This document shows, piece by piece, positions 836 through 7,989 of a DNA stretch of 7,989 nucleotides. Position numbers and translations under genes: made by a program. The DNA is from a virus (Duplodnaviria; Heunggongvirae; Uroviricota; Caudoviricetes), in the IMG/VR virus record IMGVR_UViG_2630968500_000011, positions 1 through 7,989 of that record. One strand, 5' to 3'. The stretch's first letter is position 1. Every line of letters starts with the position of its first letter. A model generated the notes under the pieces. The model saw only the letters and a list, made by a program, of their open reading frames with translations, was not told the origin of the DNA and ran no database searches.

Positions 836-1753
836 ATGAAATTACCAAAATTTCGTAACGCAATTGTGTACCGAGCAACATTACCTAGTATACAGGCTAT
901 TGAAGGGCATCTTCTCGAACTCCCTTATTCTGAAATCGGGGAAACAGAATTTTCACGGTCCTCTTTTGTAGAGAATCCTGTCACTGGTGAACTGGTAACT
1001 CCGATATCTGGTGGGTACGCAATGGTAATCCGTCATGATCAGAAAATAATTCCCCGACATGTCGTCATGAAAGAAGCTAATTCTCGAATCCAAACAATCG
1101 AAAATATGTCCGGGAATAAATTAAAGCGTGCCGAACGACTGGCCATTATTGATAACGTACGAGTAGATCTATGCAAACAGGCATTTGTTAAGTCTACGCT
1201 GATTCTTGCATTGTACAGCACTGATGAGAAATTATTGGTAATCAACACAACCAATAAAATAATAGCCGGTATGGTATGCGCAATGCTGATTAAGGTTGTC
1301 GGTTCAGTGAAAACAGAAACAATCAACATCAGTGATATCAAGAATGGACTGACTACACGCCTGAAGAACTACATCAATGGTGCAGCCAATGCATTTGAAG
1401 GATTCACTGTCGGGAATTATATTCAGCTATCACGCTACGCAGATCAAAAGGAAATTATTCGCTACTCAGCTGAGCATGAGTCAATTCAAAGCGAACTGGC
1501 CGATAGCCTTAGTAGTAGTTTCACTGCTGATAAAATGGAGTTATCCGGTTGCGGTGTGACCTTCATTCTTACCGAAAATTTCCATTTTTCGCGCATCAAT
1601 ACTCAATCTCAGACATTTAATGATGAAGATGATAAAGCATTCCAGTGGCGTCATCAGACTGGCACTGACCTTTTCCAATTCAGCAAGGTAGTTAATTTGA
1701 TGTGTGACCTTCTTTCTTACAAAGAAGATAAAAGCCAAAATCCAACAACTTAA
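836..1753 (+). CDS. RdgC-like recombination-associated protein (305 aa)
   Basis: ATG at 836 with GAGGAAA RBS at 825-831; the track ORF 686..1753 begins upstream without an RBS. N-terminus KFRNAIVYR and the segment AMVIRHDQKIIPRHVVMK resemble the RdgC family (FKNLMVYR and ICARKEEKILPSPVIKQ in E. coli RdgC, recalled from memory). Length matches the family (~303 aa). Confidence 0.75.
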   Translation: MKLPKFRNAIVYRATLPSIQAIEGHLLELPYSEIGETEFSRSSFVENPVTGELVTPISGGYAMVIRHDQKIIPRHVVMKEANSRIQTIENMSGNKLKRAERLAIIDNVRVDLCKQAFVKSTLILALYSTDEKLLVINTTNKIIAGMVCAMLIKVVGSVKTETINISDIKNGLTTRLKNYINGAANAFEGFTVGNYIQLSRYADQKEIIRYSAEHESIQSELADSLSSSFTADKMELSGCGVTFILTENFHFSRINTQSQTFNDEDDKAFQWRHQTGTDLFQFSKVVNLMCDLLSYKEDKSQNPTT

Positions 1754-1757
1754 AAAA

Positions 1758-1801
1758 ATTGCAGCAATCATCCCATGTCAAATGGGCTGGATTGCTGCAA
1801 T
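1758..1801. repeat. 11-bp perfect inverted repeat (ATTGCAGCAAT ... ATTGCTGCAAT) with nested 5-bp inner hairpin (CCCAT/ATGGG), intergenic
   Basis: Arms at 1758-1768 and 1791-1801. Preceded by an A7 run on the plus strand, so on the minus strand the hairpin is followed by a T7 run and looks like an intrinsic terminator facing antisense transcription. Could also be a protein-binding palindrome. Confidence 0.5.
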
Positions 1802-1842
1802 CAAAATTCAGCGCGGTGCAGCGCATATACGTGGAGAACAAA

Positions 1843-2379
1843 ATGTCATTTATTAAAACTTTTTCCGGGAAGCATTTTTATTATGACAGGATAAATAAAG
1901 ACAACATCGATATTAACGATATCGCGGTTTCCCTTTCAAATATCTGTCGCTTTGCCGGCCATCTTTCACACTTCTACAGCGTCGCCCAACATGCGGTGCT
2001 TTGCAGCCAGCTGGTACCGCAGGAATTTGCTTTTGAAGCGTTAATGCATGATGCAACAGAAGCGTATTGCCAGGACATTCCCTCACCACTGAAACGCCTT
2101 CTTCCTGACTATAAACGGATGGAAGAAAAAATAGACGCCGTAATCCGTGAGAAATACGGGTTACCCCCGGTTATGAGTACGCCCGTGAAATATGCCGATC
2201 TCATCATGCTGGCAACCGAACGCCGCGATCTCGGGCTTGATGATGGCTCTTTCTGGCCTGTACTGGAAGGTATCCCGGCAACAGAGATGTTCAAAGTTAT
2301 TCCACTGTCGCCAGGCCATGCCTATGGGATGTTTATGGAACGTTTTAACGAGTTATCGGAGTTACGCAAATGCGCATGA
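1843..2379 (+). CDS. yfdR: HD-domain 5'-deoxynucleotidase, YfdR/YfbR family (178 aa)
   Basis: ATG at 1843 with GGAGAA RBS at 1833-1838; the track start at 1759 would cover the palindrome and has no RBS. HD-superfamily motifs present: H in VAQHAVL, HD in LMHDATEAY, downstream Asp residues. Length and MSFIKTFSGKHFYYD N-terminus match my recollection of E. coli CPS-53 YfdR. Confidence 0.8.
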   Translation: MSFIKTFSGKHFYYDRINKDNIDINDIAVSLSNICRFAGHLSHFYSVAQHAVLCSQLVPQEFAFEALMHDATEAYCQDIPSPLKRLLPDYKRMEEKIDAVIREKYGLPPVMSTPVKYADLIMLATERRDLGLDDGSFWPVLEGIPATEMFKVIPLSPGHAYGMFMERFNELSELRKCA

Positions 2380-3017
2380 ATGTTTTCGAAATGGAAGGGT
2401 TTCTTCGCGGGAAATGTGTACCGCGAGATCTGAAAGTGAACGAAACAAACGCTGAATATCTGGTGCGTAAATTTGCTGAAGCGGAGGCCAAGATTTCGGC
2501 TCTGTCCGAAGACCACCAGAAAGCGATTGAGTCAATTAAGCAGGCTGATTCGGCTGTTAAGTTGGCACACGAGAAGTTTTCAGCGCTGGCGGCGGAGAAT
2601 GCGGGGCTGAAGTCATTTGGCGACAAGCTTAATGAGATGCATAACGACTTAAACGGCGAAGGCACGGGCATTCAGGGGCGCGCAGAGGTAGCGTGCCAGC
2701 AGGTGGCTCTTGAAGCGGCAATGGAAGAATTTGACGCTATCAAAACTCCAGCCACCGACGCCTTCCTGGATGAAGTGCGGGCGGATGCTCGCAACGAGGG
2801 GATTAACTATACCGCCAGCCGCCTCGCTGCCGCATTCAATCATGGTTTCGTTGATAAGCCGCTGGCTGAAGTCTGCGACGTGGTGCGCATGATTCTGGAC
2901 ACCAAAGAAGAACTGGCAAACTCCACGCTCCCATCGGCTGATGGGATTTCTGGCGAGTACGCAGAGAAGTTTCTCGCAGAGTTCGCCGCCCAACTTCGCC
3001 AGGAGCCAGCCCAATGA
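2370..3017 (+). CDS. hypothetical phage protein, Ala/Glu-rich and probably helical (215 aa)
   Basis: ATG at 2370 with GGAG at 2358-2361 (8-nt spacer); an alternative ATG at 2376 forms an ATGA overlap with the yfdR stop (2377-2379). Stop overlaps the next start (ATGA at 3014-3017). No family recognised. Confidence 0.65.
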   Translation: MRMNVFEMEGFLRGKCVPRDLKVNETNAEYLVRKFAEAEAKISALSEDHQKAIESIKQADSAVKLAHEKFSALAAENAGLKSFGDKLNEMHNDLNGEGTGIQGRAEVACQQVALEAAMEEFDAIKTPATDAFLDEVRADARNEGINYTASRLAAAFNHGFVDKPLAEVCDVVRMILDTKEELANSTLPSADGISGEYAEKFLAEFAAQLRQEPAQ

Positions 3018-3547
3018 GTATCGACAAACAGGCGCTGCGTGAAATCGCAGCGGCAGCAGTTGGCGCACATGAGCGCCTTAGTGTTATGCCGCCTGATGAC
3101 ATTTTCGATATCTCACTGGCAGAAGGAACTCAGCTTGATGCAGATATCACTGCCTTGAACGCGCTGAACTCCGCAGCAAACCCCACTACCGTGCTGGCGA
3201 TGCTGGATGAGTTGGAAGCCGCAAAAAAGCGCATAGCAGAACTGGAGGGGGGCGCATTCAATCCCGCAATTCTTGATGTGGTAGCAGAACGCCAGCGGCA
3301 ACAGTCGGTTGAAGGATGGACTCCTGAACATGACAACGCATATCAAAATAGCGAATTAGCAGATGCAGCGGCTTGTTACGCAATTCATGCGCACAACCAA
3401 GGTTTCTCCACTCCAGCACATTGGCCGTGGTCTCCTGACTGGTGGAAGCAATCAGGAGCACGCCGCGACTTAGTAAAAGCTGGCGCTCTTATTCTGGCAG
3501 AAATTGAACGTATTGACCGCGCCGCTGGCATTGGTAAGGGGGAGTGA
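3014..3547 (+). CDS. Ea22-like (ead) phage protein with a DUF550-like C-terminal region (177 aa)
   Basis: N-terminus MSIDKQALREIAAAA and the segment NPTTVLAMLDELEAAKKRIAELE resemble ead/Ea22-like proteins of lambdoid phages. C-terminal WTPEHDN...HWPWSPDWWKQSGARRDLVKAGALILAEIERIDRA resembles DUF550. Both recalled from memory. ATGA overlap with the upstream gene. Confidence 0.7.
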   Translation: MSIDKQALREIAAAAVGAHERLSVMPPDDIFDISLAEGTQLDADITALNALNSAANPTTVLAMLDELEAAKKRIAELEGGAFNPAILDVVAERQRQQSVEGWTPEHDNAYQNSELADAAACYAIHAHNQGFSTPAHWPWSPDWWKQSGARRDLVKAGALILAEIERIDRAAGIGKGE

Positions 3548-3978
3548 TGCTTCAACATCAAATGCAGCCAACATTTAACACCTGCATGGCTACCTGCGTT
3601 GCAATGGTTGCCGGTCAACCTGTCGATGAGGTAGTGGAACGCTGGCATCAGAAATTCCACGACAAAACAGACTGGCTCGACGACGCGCTGGATTATTACA
3701 AAATCCCGTATTTTTACGGAAGCCAGCGCAAGGCCGAATTGCTTTACGGGTTTATTTACTTCCTGACCGTTCCGTCACTGAACATCAAAGGCGGCCTGCA
3801 TCAGATTCTGATGTCGTTAACGGCAGAACGCGGCATAGAAGTATTTGACCCGGCAATGGGTCGGCCAGGATCAAAATATTACGTTTGGGGTGAAGCGCAG
3901 AACGATGATCAATTCGGCGTTATCTCCTGGTGCGTCGATTTATCGGTTCCGGTAGTGCAACAGAAAGGTGAGGACTAA
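3547..3978 (+). CDS. putative papain-fold cysteine peptidase, C39-like (143 aa)
   Basis: ATG at 3547 overlaps the upstream stop (TGATG at 3545-3549); the track start at 3544 is GTG. Motif order Q(7)...C(13) in QPTFNTCMATCVAMVAG, then His in GGLHQILMSL, then FDPAMG, matches the C39 peptidase Gln/Cys...His...Asp-Pro arrangement. Functional call is an inference. Confidence 0.5.
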   Translation: MLQHQMQPTFNTCMATCVAMVAGQPVDEVVERWHQKFHDKTDWLDDALDYYKIPYFYGSQRKAELLYGFIYFLTVPSLNIKGGLHQILMSLTAERGIEVFDPAMGRPGSKYYVWGEAQNDDQFGVISWCVDLSVPVVQQKGED

Positions 3979-3981
3979 CCC

Positions 3982-4827
3982 ATGAGCACTATTACCAAAG
4001 AACTGGCAAAGCTGTTCAGAAAAATTACGAATTCTGAAATTGATGCGGAGGGAAACGCTCATGTTGTTTTATCTCCTGCTGATAGCCTCCTGATTAATAA
4101 TGCGCGTATCGCGCTGGCATCGCTCGAAGCGGAGCCTGTGGCGTGGGCGCACAGATTAATCAACAAGCGTAACGGAGTCGTTCACCCTTGGGTTTACGGT
4201 AGCGCAGAGGCGTGTCCAAGCGAGGGGGATATCTTCAATATTGAGGTAATGCCGCTCTACACCGTCCCTCCAGCGCCGGTATCTGTGCCCGCTGCGATGG
4301 AAATGGATGATGACTTTGACAGCGCGTTTGAACACGGAAAAGCTGTCGGCTGGAACGCCTATCGCGCCGCCATGCTTCAGGCCGAACCTGTAAGTAATAG
4401 TGATGAGTTACCGCTGGACTATCTGCAAGGACACAAAGACGGCCTGGAGTGGGCTGCACAATTGGCAGAAGCCAATCATCCGCAAACAGGTGACTGGTTG
4501 TACGATGACCCAATCGATCTTGCCAGGGCGATTCGCAAAGGTCCGGATATGCCTACTGTTCAGGGTGGCAATTCTCCGGTAACTCCGGATGCTTGGATAA
4601 GCTGTAGTGAGCGAATGCCAGAAATGGGAGAGCGACAATGCTATGTGTTAGCAGCTGACTTTAAAAACAACTACCCACCAAACATCCCCAACACTCAGGT
4701 CGGCGTATATGGCGACTGGTTTAATGATGGCAATCCCACTTGGGATGACGGTGATGGCGAAGACCTGTATCTCAAAGAGGTAACCCACTGGATGCCTCTA
4801 CCAGAACCGCCGCAGGAGGTAAAGTGA
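3982..4827 (+). CDS. DUF551-domain phage protein (281 aa)
   Basis: ATG at 3982 with AGGTGAGGA RBS at 3966-3974. C-terminal WISCSERMPE...CYVLAA...VTHWMPLPEPP is the characteristic DUF551 signature. N-terminal two thirds have no recognised family. Confidence 0.75.
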   Translation: MSTITKELAKLFRKITNSEIDAEGNAHVVLSPADSLLINNARIALASLEAEPVAWAHRLINKRNGVVHPWVYGSAEACPSEGDIFNIEVMPLYTVPPAPVSVPAAMEMDDDFDSAFEHGKAVGWNAYRAAMLQAEPVSNSDELPLDYLQGHKDGLEWAAQLAEANHPQTGDWLYDDPIDLARAIRKGPDMPTVQGGNSPVTPDAWISCSERMPEMGERQCYVLAADFKNNYPPNIPNTQVGVYGDWFNDGNPTWDDGDGEDLYLKEVTHWMPLPEPPQEVK

Positions 4828-5399
4828 TGAACAACTTAATGATCGACCTTGAGACGATGGGGAAAAATAAGGATGCGCCGATCGTTTCTATTGGCGCAGT
4901 GTTCTTCACCCCAGAAACCGGAGACATCGGACAAGAATTCTATGCGGCTGTCAGCTTGGACAGTGCTATGGAGCAAGGGGCCACACCTGACGGCGACACC
5001 ATCCTGTGGTGGTTGAAACAAAGCCCTGAAGCACGAGCTGCAATCTGTATTGATGATACTTTGTCGATCAGCGATGCACTCTCTGAACTGAGCCATTTCA
5101 TTAATCGGCACGCAGACAATACGAAATATTTAAAAGTCTGGGGTAACGGAGCCAACTTCGACAACGTAATTTTACGCGGAGCTTATGAGCGAGCAGGACA
5201 AATCTGCCCATGGGCGTACTGGAATGATCACGATGCGCGCACGATCGTTACGCTTGGGCGTTCCATCGGATTCGACCCAAAAATGGACATGCCTTTCGAT
5301 GGCGAACGGCACAACGCCCTGGCTGATGCTCGTCATCAGGCAAAATATGTTTCCGCTATCTGGCAGAAATTAATTCCTGCCACCAGCACAGAATTATGA
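4827..5399 (+). CDS. DEDDh-family 3'-5' exonuclease, Rv2179c-like phage exonuclease (190 aa)
   Basis: ATG at 4827 overlaps the upstream stop (TGATG), with AGGAGG RBS at 4814-4819; track start 4824 is GTG. Exo motifs: MIDLETMG (D, E), WGNGANFD (D), HNALADARH (H...D). TILWWLKQ matches the phage Rv2179c-like subfamily. Confidence 0.8.
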   Translation: MNNLMIDLETMGKNKDAPIVSIGAVFFTPETGDIGQEFYAAVSLDSAMEQGATPDGDTILWWLKQSPEARAAICIDDTLSISDALSELSHFINRHADNTKYLKVWGNGANFDNVILRGAYERAGQICPWAYWNDHDARTIVTLGRSIGFDPKMDMPFDGERHNALADARHQAKYVSAIWQKLIPATSTEL

Positions 5400-5435
5400 T
5401 TTTCCCGGGTGCAGCCGGTTTTGATGGAGAAAATT

Positions 5436-5717
5436 ATGAACACCTTGTTTTTACTGATGGCTGAATTCAATACCCCTAACATTGAACTCTCAGCAGTTAG
5501 CCAAAAGTACTTTGGCATGAGTCCAGCCACGGCAGAAGCAAAAGCAAACGCTTGTAAGTTGCCCGTTCCAACATATCGCATCGGCACATCACAAAAAGCA
5601 AAACGTTGCATCAATATTCAGGATCTTGCGGAATACATAGACAAAAGACGAGAAGAAGGACGTATCGAGTGGGAACAGGTCAGAACAAGCAAACAGAAGG
5701 GCAAAGAACATCACTAA
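5436..5717 (+). CDS. PrtN-family (pyocin-activator-like) DNA-binding protein; probable excisionase/recombination directionality factor or regulator (93 aa)
   Basis: ATG at 5436 with GGAGA at 5426-5430 (5-nt spacer); alternative starts at ATG 5424 and GTG 5409. MNTLFLLMAEF...YFGMSPATAEAKANACKLPVPTYRIG...IQDLAEYIDKRR resembles the PrtN family. Terminal position before a terminator fits an Xis-like role (inference). Confidence 0.7.
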   Translation: MNTLFLLMAEFNTPNIELSAVSQKYFGMSPATAEAKANACKLPVPTYRIGTSQKAKRCINIQDLAEYIDKRREEGRIEWEQVRTSKQKGKEHH

Positions 5718-5720
5718 AGA

Positions 5721-5748
5721 AAAAACCCGCCTAAAGGCGGGTTTTCAA
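5721..5748. terminator. bidirectional rho-independent terminator shared by convergent genes
   Basis: AAAAAACCCGCC-TAAA-GGCGGGTTTTC: GC-rich stem (5725-5731 / 5736-5742), 4-nt loop, T-run on the plus strand and T6 on the minus strand. Lies 4 nt after the plus-strand stop (5715-5717) and 17 nt after the minus-strand stop (5765-5767). Confidence 0.8.
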
Positions 5749-5764
5749 AAAGCACCAGCTATGA

Positions 5765-5938
5765 TCATGCTGCTTTGCGACGACGAAGCTTACCCTGCTG
5801 CTCTTTACCAGAGACAGTAGCGTGAGTGAACGCATTAGGAGCAGCCTTCATCAGAACTTCAACAGCAGCACCCATACCTGCGAATGCTTTCATTGTGTCG
5901 AACTTAACCTGTGGCTTGGTTGCTTTTTGATCTTTCAT
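5765..5938 (-). CDS. small basic protein, 57 aa (MKDQKATKPQVKFDTMKAFAGMGAAVEVLMKAAPNAFTHATVSGKEQQGKLRRRKAA); function unknown
   Basis: Not in the ORF track. Hand translation of the minus strand: ATG at 5938..5936 preceded by GGGAG (complement of 5945-5949) with a 6-nt spacer, stop at 5767..5765, then the strong terminator. No family recognised. Confidence 0.6.
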   Translation of the reverse strand: MKDQKATKPQVKFDTMKAFAGMGAAVEVLMKAAPNAFTHATVSGKEQQGKLRRRKAA

Positions 5939-6008
5939 AGAAAACTCCCGAGACAGTAAAGGCGTCTCTAACCCTCTCTTTAAAGCTAGCTTGTTTCGCT
6001 AACTTATG

Positions 6009-6029
6009 CCAATCGATCATGTCGATTGG
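6009..6029. repeat. 21-bp palindrome CCAATCGA-tcatg-TCGATTGG, candidate operator
   Basis: Perfect 8-bp arms with a 5-nt spacer, about 70-90 bp upstream of the small-ORF start. No adjacent T-run, so not a terminator. Confidence 0.4.
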
Positions 6030-6104
6030 TGACATCGTTTCTTAGTAGTTTAAGCACAAAACGACTGCCATAGATGTACCTTTAAGGTAATCTGGACGGG
6101 TATC

Positions 6105-6117
6105 CTACAATTTGTAG
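6105..6117. repeat. 13-bp palindrome CTACAA-t-TTGTAG
   Basis: 6-bp perfect arms around a single central base, 18 bp downstream of the stop of the minus-strand 177-aa gene. Could be a binding site or a weak hairpin. Confidence 0.3.
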
Positions 6118-6134
6118 ACCCTTCTCGTCTATAC

Positions 6135-6668
6135 CTACTGAGCAAATTTAAGAAAGATATCCTGCAGCTCATCAATGACTGCAGACATCACATAACCGCA
6201 CTGTTCCATGCGGAAACCAAAAGACTCGTAATACTGCACCAGTTCTGGTACTGGCTCTACAATGTGGACAACTTTACATTCAACAGCTTTACAAAATATA
6301 AAAGCACTCATAAGAGTGAGTAAAACCATGCGCCCTTTCAATGGGTGAGATTCATCTTCTCTAGAAAACCTTTCGATCATATGGATACGAAAGATGTTTT
6401 CTTCAACCCCATAAACACAAATTGCTGCTCCTGATGGTATTCCCTGAACCCGACCTTGCTGAACAAGTTTTATGCAGAACTCATACTTTTCTCTGGAGTT
6501 GCCATAGGTACTTAACGCATAGTCCCATTCAAGCTCACCATAGCCACCACACAGAATCTTGTAATCATCATCACTGAGCGGACCAACAGCAAGAGGTAAG
6601 CCGACATGATCAATAATCAACTGGATATTGTTACGTACTGATTGACCTATCTCGTCCAGGGTAAGCAT
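6135..6668 (-). CDS. hypothetical protein (177 aa), AT-rich gene; tentative GNAT-related / acyltransferase-like fold
   Basis: ORF 6135..6671 minus; the second ATG (6668..6666) is better placed behind GAGAGG. The ELEWDY and IERFSRE segments and a C-terminal beta-alpha pattern (KVVHIVEPVPELVQYYESFGF) loosely resemble GNAT-fold or LuxI-type acyltransferases. Weak, memory-based. Confidence 0.6.
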   Translation of the reverse strand: MLTLDEIGQSVRNNIQLIIDHVGLPLAVGPLSDDDYKILCGGYGELEWDYALSTYGNSREKYEFCIKLVQQGRVQGIPSGAAICVYGVEENIFRIHMIERFSREDESHPLKGRMVLLTLMSAFIFCKAVECKVVHIVEPVPELVQYYESFGFRMEQCGYVMSAVIDELQDIFLKFAQ

Positions 6669-6700
6669 CATGGCCTCTCAAGCGGAACACTAAAAGTCGC

Positions 6701-6706: not shown

Positions 6707-7218
6707 TCTCATTCTTAAGCCGCGTATGGATTACACCTTGAAATGAAAACGCCGGGTTCCCAATAGGCTCCCACAGAGTGTATAACTACTTGTTTTTCAA
6801 CAACGGTACATCCTATCGAGCATTGGTGCAACGCTAAACCGACCACTCCAGTGAACGTCAGTTTTTTCAGGCATTGCGCTGGTTTGGTTGATTTTTTGCA
6901 TTTCAGAATTACCGTGCATTTTCAAATGTAGAGATTATTTTATCGATATATCATGGGGTTATGTTATTCAGCATCACTGTTCAGGAGGCTCAATAGCGGG
7001 GTACTATACCATAACAACAGGAAGCGCCTGTCTCATTGCAAAAGAAAATTGAGATCCTCTCAAGGCATGAAGCTCTCACGAAGTGATGGAAATAATCTTA
7101 TTAGCCGTTAACTTTGTTAAGGCCAATGATAAACAATCCAGGTTCGACGATAAATAAAAAATCACACATTAAACTCTGGTAATATATCTCCCTGCTAATA
7201 GCATTGATAGAGAAAAAA

Positions 7219-7281: not shown

Positions 7282-7989
7282 TTATTTCTCCGATTTAACC
7301 CCGAACAAATCATAAATTAATTTAGAAGTGTCTGTAAGTATTTTAATCTCTTCCTTTGAGGTTGGGTCAAACGACTTCGCGAAGCTAATTAATTGTGGTG
7401 CAGCATCTCGCATTTTGCTTAAAATATCAGGATCGAGCGTTCCTTCATTCACCAGATGTGACATCTTATCCAGATAGCCATCAAAATTCATTTCTCCCCC
7501 ATCAGCCAGACGCTTCATCTCTCCCAGGTACTTCTTCATATCACGTTGAGATAATTTTTCAAACTGAGCTTTCAGGTAGCTCTCATTATTTTCATTAATA
7601 TACACTGTTTCTGATAAATCTGCGTAGGCACTAGAATATGAAAGTGAAATTAACAGCGAAGCAAATAATTTTAAGCTGTTGTCATCATGTTCCTGGCAGG
7701 CATTAACAAACGTTAAAAAACCAGAACCTATTGCTTGAAAATGTATATTCGCTAAAGGTTCATTATCCTTAGATTCCTCATAAAATAGCTGAACCGTGGA
7801 GGGAAGGTCATTCTTAGTTTCTACATCAAAAGTACATTGTTCAATGGGCATTGCATCTTTATTATCCCCAAGATTACATATACTATTAATCGCGAAATGA
7901 AAAATAGCCCGGTCAACAACTGATGCAATAAAGTCACGATCGTTTAAATCCTCATCAGTGCAATCGTCAATATACTTATTGACCCACAT
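7282..7989 (-). CDS. C-terminal part (at least 235 aa) of a hypothetical protein on AT-rich DNA; gene continues beyond the window end
   Basis: Minus-strand frame open from the window edge to TAA at 7284..7282. Coding-like composition. The Met at the edge may be internal. No family recognised. Confidence 0.6.
   Translation of the reverse strand: MWVNKYIDDCTDEDLNDRDFIASVVDRAIFHFAINSICNLGDNKDAMPIEQCTFDVETKNDLPSTVQLFYEESKDNEPLANIHFQAIGSGFLTFVNACQEHDDNSLKLFASLLISLSYSSAYADLSETVYINENNESYLKAQFEKLSQRDMKKYLGEMKRLADGGEMNFDGYLDKMSHLVNEGTLDPDILSKMRDAAPQLISFAKSFDPTSKEEIKILTDTSKLIYDLFGVKSEK

Follow-up and report, generated by a model that had tools for sequence, protein, structure and literature searches.

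Two adjoining genes on the plus strand of a 7,989-nt stretch of prophage DNA (the window, meaning the whole stretch analysed) overlap by a single base, one encoding a protein with a DUF551 domain (3982-4827) and the other a putative 3′-5′ exonuclease (4827-5399). Such an arrangement raises the question of whether the two proteins operate as a unit and, if they do not, what each is for. The original prediction favoured co-expression in a fixed ratio, and speculated that the nuclease might degrade host RNA or nucleotide second messengers. Both open reading frames are real, and RefSeq annotates the same two. Our analysis leads us to an explanation that we consider probable, in which each is an accessory gene independent of the other, both situated towards the end of the early-left (pL-type) operon in a dusA-integrated mEp460-like prophage, the second belonging to the DexA family and the first being a patchwork.

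The prophage and the end of its early-left operon

By sequence comparison, the window is a 100% match to the chromosome of E. coli G5; an apparent 210-bp indel between the two arose from the joining of BLAST pieces, and the match is exact. Around it lie phage genes (repressor, antiterminator, lysis and terminase) and a fragment of dusA, and the host element is an mEp460-like lambdoid prophage with dusA as its integration site. The Rec module is absent from mEp460, LLS and ST64B-type lambdoid phages (PMC12315714), and the prophage belongs to this class without a recognisable recombination module.

The pair occupies the distal part of the early-left operon, directly 5′ of a gene for a PrtN-like excisionase (5436-5717, plus strand; Pfam PF11112, annotated as excisionase in mEp460 gp25). 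No promoter-like sites were found in the region 3400-6200, and a terminator hairpin occurs only after the excisionase gene, with none earlier along the pair. From the gene order and the absence of consensus promoters we infer that the two genes are co-transcribed from the early-left promoter, and the exonuclease would then be made early after induction or infection, along with the excisionase. The GC-rich hairpin (5721-5746, called on the minus strand; 11 pairs, six of them G-C) sits between the excisionase gene and a convergent gene for a protein of 57 amino acids, and is likely to mark the end of the operon; the A and T runs on its flanks suggest that it acts in both directions. It is the downstream excisionase that is the stable partner of the exonuclease, starting 36 nt past the exonuclease stop codon in every one of 62 close loci. 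The same operon also encodes a YfdR-type HD-domain 5′-deoxynucleotidase (1843-2379, plus strand; Pfam and RefSeq), and a YfdR motif is found no more than 4 kb 5′ of the exonuclease in 58 of the 62. An RdgC homologue shares the operon as well.

A predicted DexA-family exonuclease and a modular neighbour

The second gene encodes 190 amino acids (4827-5399, with 4824 and 4827 as possible starts in the ORF list) and carries the RefSeq annotation '3′-5′ exonuclease' (WP_023157251.1). The Pfam family PF16473, named 'Rv2179c-like', covers the whole protein (250.9 bits against a cut-off of 27, profile positions 1-177 of 177), and the protein falls within phrog_255 (E 1.9e-92), the PHROG that also contains T4 DexA. 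Searching the PDB by sequence returned only DexA (8KEL; phmmer E 8.7e-10), and a family profile aligned residues 1-167 with DexA 1-191 (E 1.1e-15). An AlphaFold2 model of good quality (pLDDT 90.3) gave the same answer: the best Foldseek match was again 8KEL (TM 0.77, E 6e-11), ahead of RNase T and Orn. There were 132 PDB matches at E≤0.001, and each of the best 50 is either a DEDD exonuclease or an exonuclease domain (among them DexA, RNase T, Orn, REXO2, the PolC exonuclease domain and DinG). The prediction of a complete DEDDh motif set is borne out in full. Residues D7, E9, D112, H162 and D167 (codons 4845-4847, 4851-4853, 5160-5162, 5310-5312 and 5325-5327) align with the catalytic D7, E9, D119, H186 and D191 of T4 DexA. 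Across 109 homologues they are near-universal: the Exo I motif D-x-E (IDLET) is conserved in 107, the Exo II aspartate (NFD) in 109, and the histidine and aspartate of the Exo III motif H-x4-D (HNALAD) in 107 and 108, respectively. Sequence and modelled structure together thus identify the protein as a predicted small DEDDh (DnaQ-fold) exonuclease of the T4 DexA family.

What such an enzyme would act upon is a separate matter. Both of its nearest characterised relatives, T4 DexA and E. coli EcD, behave in vitro as DNA exonucleases (PMC12153337), and on the strength of their biochemistry the substrate is most likely DNA. The enzyme would remove nucleotides singly from free 3′-OH ends by two-metal-ion catalysis involving the five residues above. 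Preference between DNA and RNA, or among single-stranded, double-stranded and oligonucleotide substrates, cannot be read from sequence at 28% (DexA) or 37% (EcD) identity. Should the analogy hold, a 3′-5′ DNA exonuclease in the company of an RdgC homologue and YfdR, in a prophage lacking a Rec module, offers a lead on the handling of host recombination or DNA turnover.

The first gene encodes an Eaa/Ea22-type modular early protein of 281 amino acids that starts at ATG and is annotated in RefSeq as 'DUF551 domain-containing protein' (WP_047602067.1). It matches phrog_60, phrog_924, phrog_660 and phrog_5117, all four of unknown function, and the exact protein occurs in a single cluster from two contigs. 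Its one Pfam match is the DUF551 domain itself (PF04448) at residues 204-278 (4591-4815, plus strand; 72.6 bits against a cut-off of 22, E 4.8e-20, profile positions 1-68 of 68). The N-terminal 200 or so residues (3982-4581) were correctly described as uncharacterised, having no match in relaxed Pfam and NCBIfam scans or in the PDB; a profile of the whole protein likewise found nothing in the PDB, and PADLOC returned no match. The AlphaFold2 model, built from 52 close homologues, is unusable for fold searching (pLDDT 43). What this region does reveal is its portability. The N-terminal module recurs at 93-100% identity on other C-termini, including DUF550 (PF04447) in 465-residue 'Eaa' proteins; its joints are marked by the motifs ALASLEAEPVAW, GWNAYRAAMLQ and GNSPVTPD(A/G)W, and mosaic breakpoints are visible at the DNA level near nucleotides 121-130, 400-413 and 581-652 of the query. 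DUF551 is one of several interchangeable C-terminal domains carried by an Eaa/Ea22-type patchwork protein. By analogy with YfdS and Ea22 (see below), the protein probably acts on host physiology or on the choice between lysis and lysogeny, and not in the service of the nuclease.

The junction and the rival readings

Direct reading of the sequence confirms the overlap of the DUF551 stop with the exonuclease start at TGATG (4825-4829, plus strand; TGA 4825-4827, ATG 4827-4829), within the context ...CAGGAGGTAAAGTGATGAAC... and amounting to one base. The exonuclease gene has its own Shine-Dalgarno sequence, AGGAGG (4814-4819, plus strand), read directly and placed with a 7-nt spacer before the ATG. 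We aligned 450-nt pieces of related loci as DNA and then parsed the junctions: AGGAGG travels with the exonuclease in all loci of at least 95% identity, regardless of the upstream gene, and the one-base overlap, the Shine-Dalgarno sequence and the last four upstream codons (QEVK) all persist when that gene is unrelated. The sequence CAGGAGGTGAAGT(G/A)ATG is common to all close loci; some relatives have TAATG, and a group at 81-86% identity has TAAC-GTG with a 1-nt gap. The overlap would thus belong to the 5′ boundary of the exonuclease module, comprising the ribosome-binding site and the QEVK codons, at which lambdoid recombination would swap upstream genes; its product would be tight operon packing rather than a dedicated stoichiometric pair. 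A stop/start overlap is in any case unremarkable here because four of the seven junctions in the operon overlap (by -10, -4, -1 and -1), and the identical GTGATG also joins ea22 to its following gene.

The company kept by the exonuclease tells a similar story. Upstream of it in 63 close loci we found DUF551 in 36, a zinc-ribbon domain in 12 and other genes in 15, so that DUF551 is the commonest neighbour, at about 57%. The 80 IMG/VR loci are close kin rather than phylogenetically independent observations, and such percentages should be read as a description of this sample, not as rates. With DUF551 so frequent, carrying both genes together may confer some selective advantage. On the question of whether the two genes co-occur in related phages, the answer divides: they are adjacent in that majority of close relatives but in none of 18 more distant loci. 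Near-identical copies come apart in both directions. In loci L002-L004, an exonuclease of 99-100% identity stands behind a non-DUF551 gene; in Stx2_EH2246, a DUF551 domain of 98.8% identity is followed by a 480-nt gap, xis and int, with no exonuclease. Of 1083 E. coli genomes with a match, just 16 have this particular DUF551 domain joined to the exonuclease, and among phage records 55 have close relatives of the exonuclease as against 277 with the DUF551 domain, mostly Stx phages (tblastn). The DUF551 and exonuclease genes are most likely independent mosaic accessory genes rather than a fixed pair.

How, then, do the other readings fare? The proposal closest to the original prediction is that of a dedicated unit, either a complex or a targeting subunit with its nuclease, whose ratio is fixed by termination and reinitiation at TGATG. 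In its favour are the one-base overlap, the side-by-side placement of the two genes in 36 of 63 close loci, in mEp460 and in phiSTEC1575, and a weak possible pairing of the Shine-Dalgarno sequence with exonuclease codons 7-9. However, RNA folding that would occlude the Shine-Dalgarno sequence is no better than in shuffled sequence (z -1.27; 24 of 200 shuffles equally stable), the exonuclease has its own AGGAGG, and the same junction follows zinc-ribbon, membrane-like and other genes. Near-identical copies separate, in more distant relatives DUF551 is missing and the junction has a 1-nt gap, and the 120 top-ranking relatives of each protein include no DUF551-exonuclease fusion. We therefore regard a dedicated unit as very unlikely: co-transcription stands, given the lack of an internal promoter-like site, whereas the fixed ratio and the functional pair are not supported. 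More improbable still, to our minds, is a programmable early nuclease for which the Eaa-type protein translated immediately beforehand selects the target by means of its exchangeable C-terminal domain (DUF551, zinc ribbon or other), the joint of QEVK, Shine-Dalgarno sequence and overlap acting as a plug-in socket for adaptor genes. Were it so, the targets might include the DNA of competitor phages, the cDNA product of retrons or DRTs, or a host recombination intermediate.

Two further readings concern the nuclease itself. Temperate-phage early-left accessory regions are a plausible home for counter-defence genes, and a 3′-5′ exoribonuclease or oligonucleotidase might degrade host RNA or the messengers of CBASS, Thoeris or type III CRISPR. 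PF16473 takes its name from the M. tuberculosis exoribonuclease Rv2179c, and RNase T, oligoribonuclease and REXO2 match the modelled structure significantly (TM about 0.7, slightly below DexA). Against this, Rv2179c was undetected by sequence, whether with the exonuclease or the family profile as query against the PDB (E≤1), and is absent from the best 50 structural matches; the nearest characterised relatives act on DNA. DEDDh enzymes require a free 3′-OH terminus, and cyclic messengers would therefore have to be linearised beforehand. In the literature on DEDDh enzymes in anti-defence and on Rv2179c, we found nothing linking PF16473 or this phage family to counter-defence. Nothing points to RNA or cyclic-nucleotide substrates, and there is in our judgement only a slim chance that the reading is right. 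An exclusion nuclease of the type called HREX, selectively degrading the hydroxymethylcytosine DNA of superinfecting T-even phages and so protecting the lysogen or the induced cell, is unlikely. It draws on EcD, which degrades T4 DNA and, from a plasmid, protects against T4 (PMC12153337); EcD-like genes belong to the same Pfam family, are 37% identical and also lie in a temperate-phage early region, and the DexA tryptophan W152 is kept as W132. The acidic residue that reportedly reads 5hmC, however, is not kept in the window exonuclease (R145-S146), and the S87/D90 pair of DexA, the loss of which reportedly accounts for the modification specificity of EcD (D90 being tetramer-forming), is retained as S80/D83. 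The gene's position, well inside a repressed early operon and without a nearby promoter-like site, makes expression in the lysogen doubtful, and PADLOC gives the enzyme only a weak, generic match (a Cas-associated DEDDh model, E 4e-5). We accordingly retain the reading of two independent accessory genes in comparing the locus with systems already described.

Relation to known systems

Rv2179c, the namesake of PF16473, is a chromosomal exoribonuclease, and it shares with the window exonuclease the Pfam family and the DEDDh fold class. Since it gave no direct match, its RNA specificity should not be transferred. 'Rv2179c-like' is a Pfam label only, and as 'Rv2179c-like exoribonuclease' it misleads on hundreds of enterobacterial prophage genes whose nearest characterised relatives are DexA and EcD.

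T4 DexA (PDB 8KEL and 8KEN) is the closest solved structure by both sequence and fold, with the Pfam family, phrog_255 and the five DEDDh residues in common. Nevertheless, the two are only 28% identical, the window protein is shorter (190 against 227 residues) and lacks several DexA loops and helices, and no equivalent of DexA D169 is present; across the family this column holds Q 38, A 26, E 9 and S 8 times. The settings also differ, the window exonuclease lying beside xis in a temperate lambdoid phage while DexA serves a virulent phage whose DNA carries hmC.

Among E. coli homologues, only EcD ('HREX', HAK9828821.1; Kang et al., NAR 2025, PMC12153337) has been tested; it is of the same family and of similar size (189 amino acids) and keeps the catalytic residues and the tryptophan. 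We recovered EcD-like genes through the 17-mer at the EcD 5′ end; their terminus (PFLNI, then stop) and A78 fit the published description (PMC12153337), and we take them as EcD-like rather than as HAK9828821.1 itself. The single match of the 20-mer from the EcD 3′ primer was due to chance. The position of DexA D90 is A78 or a gap in EcD and D83 in the window exonuclease, and the 5hmC-reading site is R-D169 in DexA, E-S (acidic) in the EcD-like proteins and R145-S146 here, in a loop whose alignment is not very secure. The recovered copies are temperate-phage early genes too, lying next to a Dam methylase gene in a P2-like early region, as opposed to the lambdoid backbone and excisionase neighbour of the window exonuclease. 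The DexA homologues described as 'bacterial' in E. coli, recently put forward as a defence against T4, appear to be early genes of temperate phages, a point relevant to the timing of their expression and to whether phage or host benefits.

For the DUF551 protein, the parallels are YfdS of the CPS-53 prophage and Ea22 V2 of Stx phages, both with a C-terminal DUF551 domain and a variable N-terminus and both encoded between recombination or yfdQR genes and xis (PMC4776307, PMC10834534). Deletion of yfdS reportedly confers sensitivity to H2O2 and its overexpression helps DnaA inhibition, and Ea22 is described as pro-lysogenic (PMC4776307, PMC10834534). The N-terminal modules of YfdS and of Stx Ea22/EaA differ from those of the window protein, and no exonuclease follows either YfdS (yfdS-yfdT-torI in K-12) or Stx Ea22/EaA (Stx2_EH2246).

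The nearest precedent for the locus as a whole is mEp460, in which the order is as in the window: YfdR, further along Ea22, a hypothetical protein, the DUF551 protein (gp27), the exonuclease (gp26), the excisionase (gp25), two reverse genes and int, with gp27 and gp26 overlapping just as the window pair does. Both genes being already in RefSeq and the same pair in mEp460, the finding is largely an ordinary one. The gp26 gene is 94.3% identical in DNA to the window exonuclease gene, and the related record mEp460_4F5 is 97.4% identical in protein. By comparison, gp27 has 250 amino acids, other N-terminal modules and another DUF551 allele, and the DNA similarity between mEp460 and the window begins just 45 nt 5′ of the exonuclease start.

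A DexA-like exonuclease with a complete active site

Both genes of the pair, encoding a 281-aa DUF551 protein (3982-4827, + strand) and a 190-aa exonuclease (4827-5399, + strand), are real and were correctly described in the original prediction, whose coordinates match our ORF list and the RefSeq annotation alike. The same pair was already annotated in phage mEp460 and RefSeq, and the exonuclease family has characterised members. Most likely, the two are accessory genes of a lambdoid prophage, each exchangeable without the other; the exonuclease would go with the operon's excisionase end and would probably trim 3′ ends of DNA at an early stage of lytic growth.

The Pfam family PF16473 spans the whole exonuclease. 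A PDB search with the single sequence matched T4 DexA alone (8KEL/8KEN; E 9e-10), the match reaching E 1e-15 when a 50-homologue profile was used, and Rv2179c, which gives PF16473 its name, went undetected by sequence or profile even at E≤1. The AlphaFold model built on the 50-homologue alignment was confident (pLDDT 90.3); its best structural matches were DexA chains (E 6e-11, TM 0.77), RNase T and oligoribonucleases came next, and Rv2179c was absent from the best 50. The protein also falls in phrog_255, which contains T4 DexA. The label 'Rv2179c-like' therefore stands as far as the PF16473 match goes, but the enzyme is better described as DexA-like.

In a MAFFT alignment of the window exonuclease, DexA and 107 homologues (109 sequences), which was confirmed separately, DexA residues D7, E9, D119, H186 and D191 align with window residues D7, E9, D112, H162 and D167, and these five columns are conserved in 107-109 of the 109 sequences. 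The predicted DEDDh set is thus complete and falls on the catalytic positions of DexA. A published figure legend gives the DexA residues as D7, E12, D119, D191 and H186 (PMC12153337); we used E9 in place of E12 because residue 12 of the translated DexA sequence is glycine and residue 9 is glutamate.

The family is large, with 1796 relatives at E≤0.001 in Enterobacterales and beyond, mostly named '3′-5′ exonuclease' or 'exoribonuclease'. In two related database proteins (P0061 and P0006) an Eaa-type gene from upstream is joined in frame to the exonuclease, and P0061 lacks the D-x-E motif; such joins look as if deletion or frameshift, not natural domain fusion, produced them, and DUF551 is part of none of them. 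In the O157:H7 and related genomes sampled (matches H141-H145; e.g. NZ_CP017434.1 5057893-5058245), a probe of DUF551 domain plus exonuclease matched solely in the 3′-terminal 353 nt of the exonuclease gene (probe nt 466-818, window 5047-5399), which suggests a truncated or recombined copy without the Exo I motif.

Junction and upstream neighbours

The TGATG overlap can be read directly (TGA 4825-4827, ATG 4827-4829) in the junction sequence CAGGAGGTAAAGTGATGAAC, with AGGAGG at 4814-4819. We place the exonuclease start at ATG 4827 and not GTG 4824 because relatives with GTAATG keep the ATG and lose the GTG. The one-base overlap permits termination-reinitiation but does not imply the fixed expression ratio that had been proposed for the pair. 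Co-transcription is borne out, as no sigma-70-like promoter was found within 3400-6200 and a strong hairpin occurs only 3′ of the excisionase (5721-5746); long co-transcribed operons are normal for phage early regions. The fixed ratio is not, since the exonuclease has its own perfect Shine-Dalgarno sequence 7 nt upstream, and the best RNA fold pairing it was no better than shuffled sequence (z -1.27). The remaining operon junctions are -10, -4, -1 (an identical GTGATG), +3, +36 and +89.

We compared the 420 nt upstream of the exonuclease in 80 IMG/VR loci with relatives 81-100% identical; because the loci are closely related, neighbour counts here describe the sample and not independent events. 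The group of at least 95% identity (63 loci, the window included) comprised 36 DUF551-type ends (..HWMPLPEPPQEVK), 12 zinc-ribbon ends (..CxxC..CxxCxGSG..QEVK) and 15 others, a small membrane-like protein among them, while the 81-86% group (18 loci) held 0, 6 and 12, respectively. Three loci (L002-L004) have an exonuclease 99-100% identical to the window's, yet a non-DUF551 gene upstream. Common to every locus of at least 95% identity is CAGGAGGTGAAGT(G/A)ATG, which comprises the last four codons (QEVK), the Shine-Dalgarno sequence and the one-base overlap; loci in the 81-86% range carry a Shine-Dalgarno sequence of their own, start with GTG or ATG, and have one base between the genes. Conversely, in Stx phages a DUF551 domain 98.8% identical to the window's has no exonuclease behind it; after a gap of 480 nt come xis and int. 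Phage records hold the DUF551 domain in 277 cases versus 55 for close exonuclease relatives (at least 60% identity), and of 5426 complete E. coli genomes 1083 match the two-part probe, only 16 covering both parts. Near-identical copies dissociate in both directions and the upstream gene varies, so functional coupling of the two genes, as originally envisaged, finds no support. Exactly 36 nt separate the exonuclease from the start of the PrtN-like excisionase downstream (window 5436-5717) in 62/62 close loci and in mEp460, a fixed spacing that ties the exonuclease to the xis/att end and not to the gene before it. In 58/62 loci a YfdR motif is present no more than 4 kb upstream.

A patchwork DUF551 protein

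The DUF551 match is confined to residues 204-278 (Pfam), and the N-terminal 200 aa, predicted to be uncharacterised, indeed have no match in Pfam, NCBIfam or PDB; structure prediction for the protein gave pLDDT 43. The protein is a patchwork, with different phages matching nt 1-641, 130-615, 265-652, 1-400 or 581-850 of the two-gene DNA query. Its N-terminal ~200 residues reappear at 93-100% identity on other C-termini, including 465-aa 'Eaa' proteins with DUF550/PF04447, and the exact 281-aa combination has so far been seen in a single cluster. The joints are marked by short conserved linkers, ALASLEAEPVAW, GWNA(C/Y)RAAMLQ and GNSPVTPDGW, which are also present in the zinc-ribbon proteins that replace the DUF551 protein 5′ of the exonuclease.

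Near-invariant DNA encodes GNSPVTPDGW ahead of the C-terminal domain (window 4552-4581 and the equivalent in L005-L081), be it DUF551 or a CxxC..CxxCxGSG zinc ribbon, and GWNACRAAMLQ and ALASLEAEPVAW reappear likewise. All three have the look of joints at which Eaa/Ea22-type proteins swap domains by recombination. In the literature DUF551 is treated as portable, occurring both in the YfdS protein of prophage CPS-53 and in one of the Ea22 variants of Stx phages; deletion of yfdS confers sensitivity to H2O2, and yfdQR in multicopy requires yfdS or yfdT as well to inhibit DnaA-dependent initiation (PMC10834534, PMC4776307).

Prophage setting and comparison with known systems

All 7989 bases match the E. 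coli G5 chromosome (NZ_CP060065.1) at 100%, within a lambdoid prophage in which terminase, lysis genes, antiterminator and repressors precede the window genes. The + strand genes, which make up the distal part of the early-left operon, are in order an RdgC homologue (836-1753), a YfdR-type HD nucleotidase (1843-2379), an unknown 215-aa protein, an Ead/Ea22-like protein (3014-3547), an unknown 143-aa protein, the DUF551 protein, the exonuclease and a PrtN-like protein (5436-5717). Just 5′ of rdgC, RefSeq has a frameshifted, incomplete hypothetical gene (525-811, +) in a region of several long overlapping ORFs on both strands. A displaced 105-nt dusA fragment (6815-6919, − strand) marks the prophage end, adjoining yjbL/DUF2713 and zur; dusA is a known integration hotspot. 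In G5 the DUF2713 (yjbL-like) gene (7282-7989, − strand) carries a frameshift annotation.

Gene order is the same in phage mEp460, whose PrtN-like gene is annotated as excisionase and whose integrase lies past two reverse genes (gp24/gp23). The counterparts of that conserved pair are convergent genes of 57 aa (5765-5938, − strand; phrog_2741) and 178 aa (6135-6671, − strand; phrog_4350) between excisionase and attachment site; neither has a match in Pfam, NCBIfam, PADLOC or PDB, and they are placed and oriented as lysogen-expressed 'moron' genes typically are. The RdgC homologue holds the slot of YfdQ/DUF2303 in mEp460 and CPS-53, with YfdR next (window 836-2379). A 2025 survey found that 22% of lambdoid phages, mEp460, LLS and ST64B-type among them, are without a recognisable recombination module (PMC12315714). 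One operon unites RdgC, an HD 5′-deoxynucleotidase and a 3′-5′ exonuclease in a phage class without a Rec module, a grouping that may hint at manipulation of host recombination or DNA turnover. For the exonuclease itself, candidate roles are to act with YfdR in DNA turnover, to modulate host recombination for a phage that has no Rec module, or to exclude other phages.

The last of these has a published parallel. EcD, an E. coli DexA homologue, digests 5hmC-containing T4 DNA and, when produced from a plasmid, shields cells against T4, and EcD-type homologues were published as the bacterial anti-T4 defence 'HREX' (Kang et al., PMC12153337), a paper in which the word 'prophage' does not occur. 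Using its supplementary EcD forward primer, we retrieved EcD-like genes from IMG/VR (189 aa, MIDTETLG...PFLNI, with A78 in line with PMC12153337) whose products are 37% identical to the window exonuclease and 25% to DexA. They lie in a P2-like temperate-phage early region (L103:4152-4742; also L093, L106 and L109), in the order HTH repressor, Cox-like protein, DUF4754, exonuclease, Dam methylase and DUF4406. Ahead of the published start, an in-frame extension reads MNHL, much as the window exonuclease begins with MNNL. The window enzyme keeps the HREX-diagnostic tryptophan (W132) but has R145-S146 and no acidic residue near DexA D169, and it retains the DexA S87/D90 pair as S80/D83, loss of which is said to make EcD modification-specific (PMC12153337). 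Given these last two differences, transfer of the HREX function to the window exonuclease would be weakly supported at best, and it is safer to infer a 3′-5′ exonuclease acting on DNA ends.
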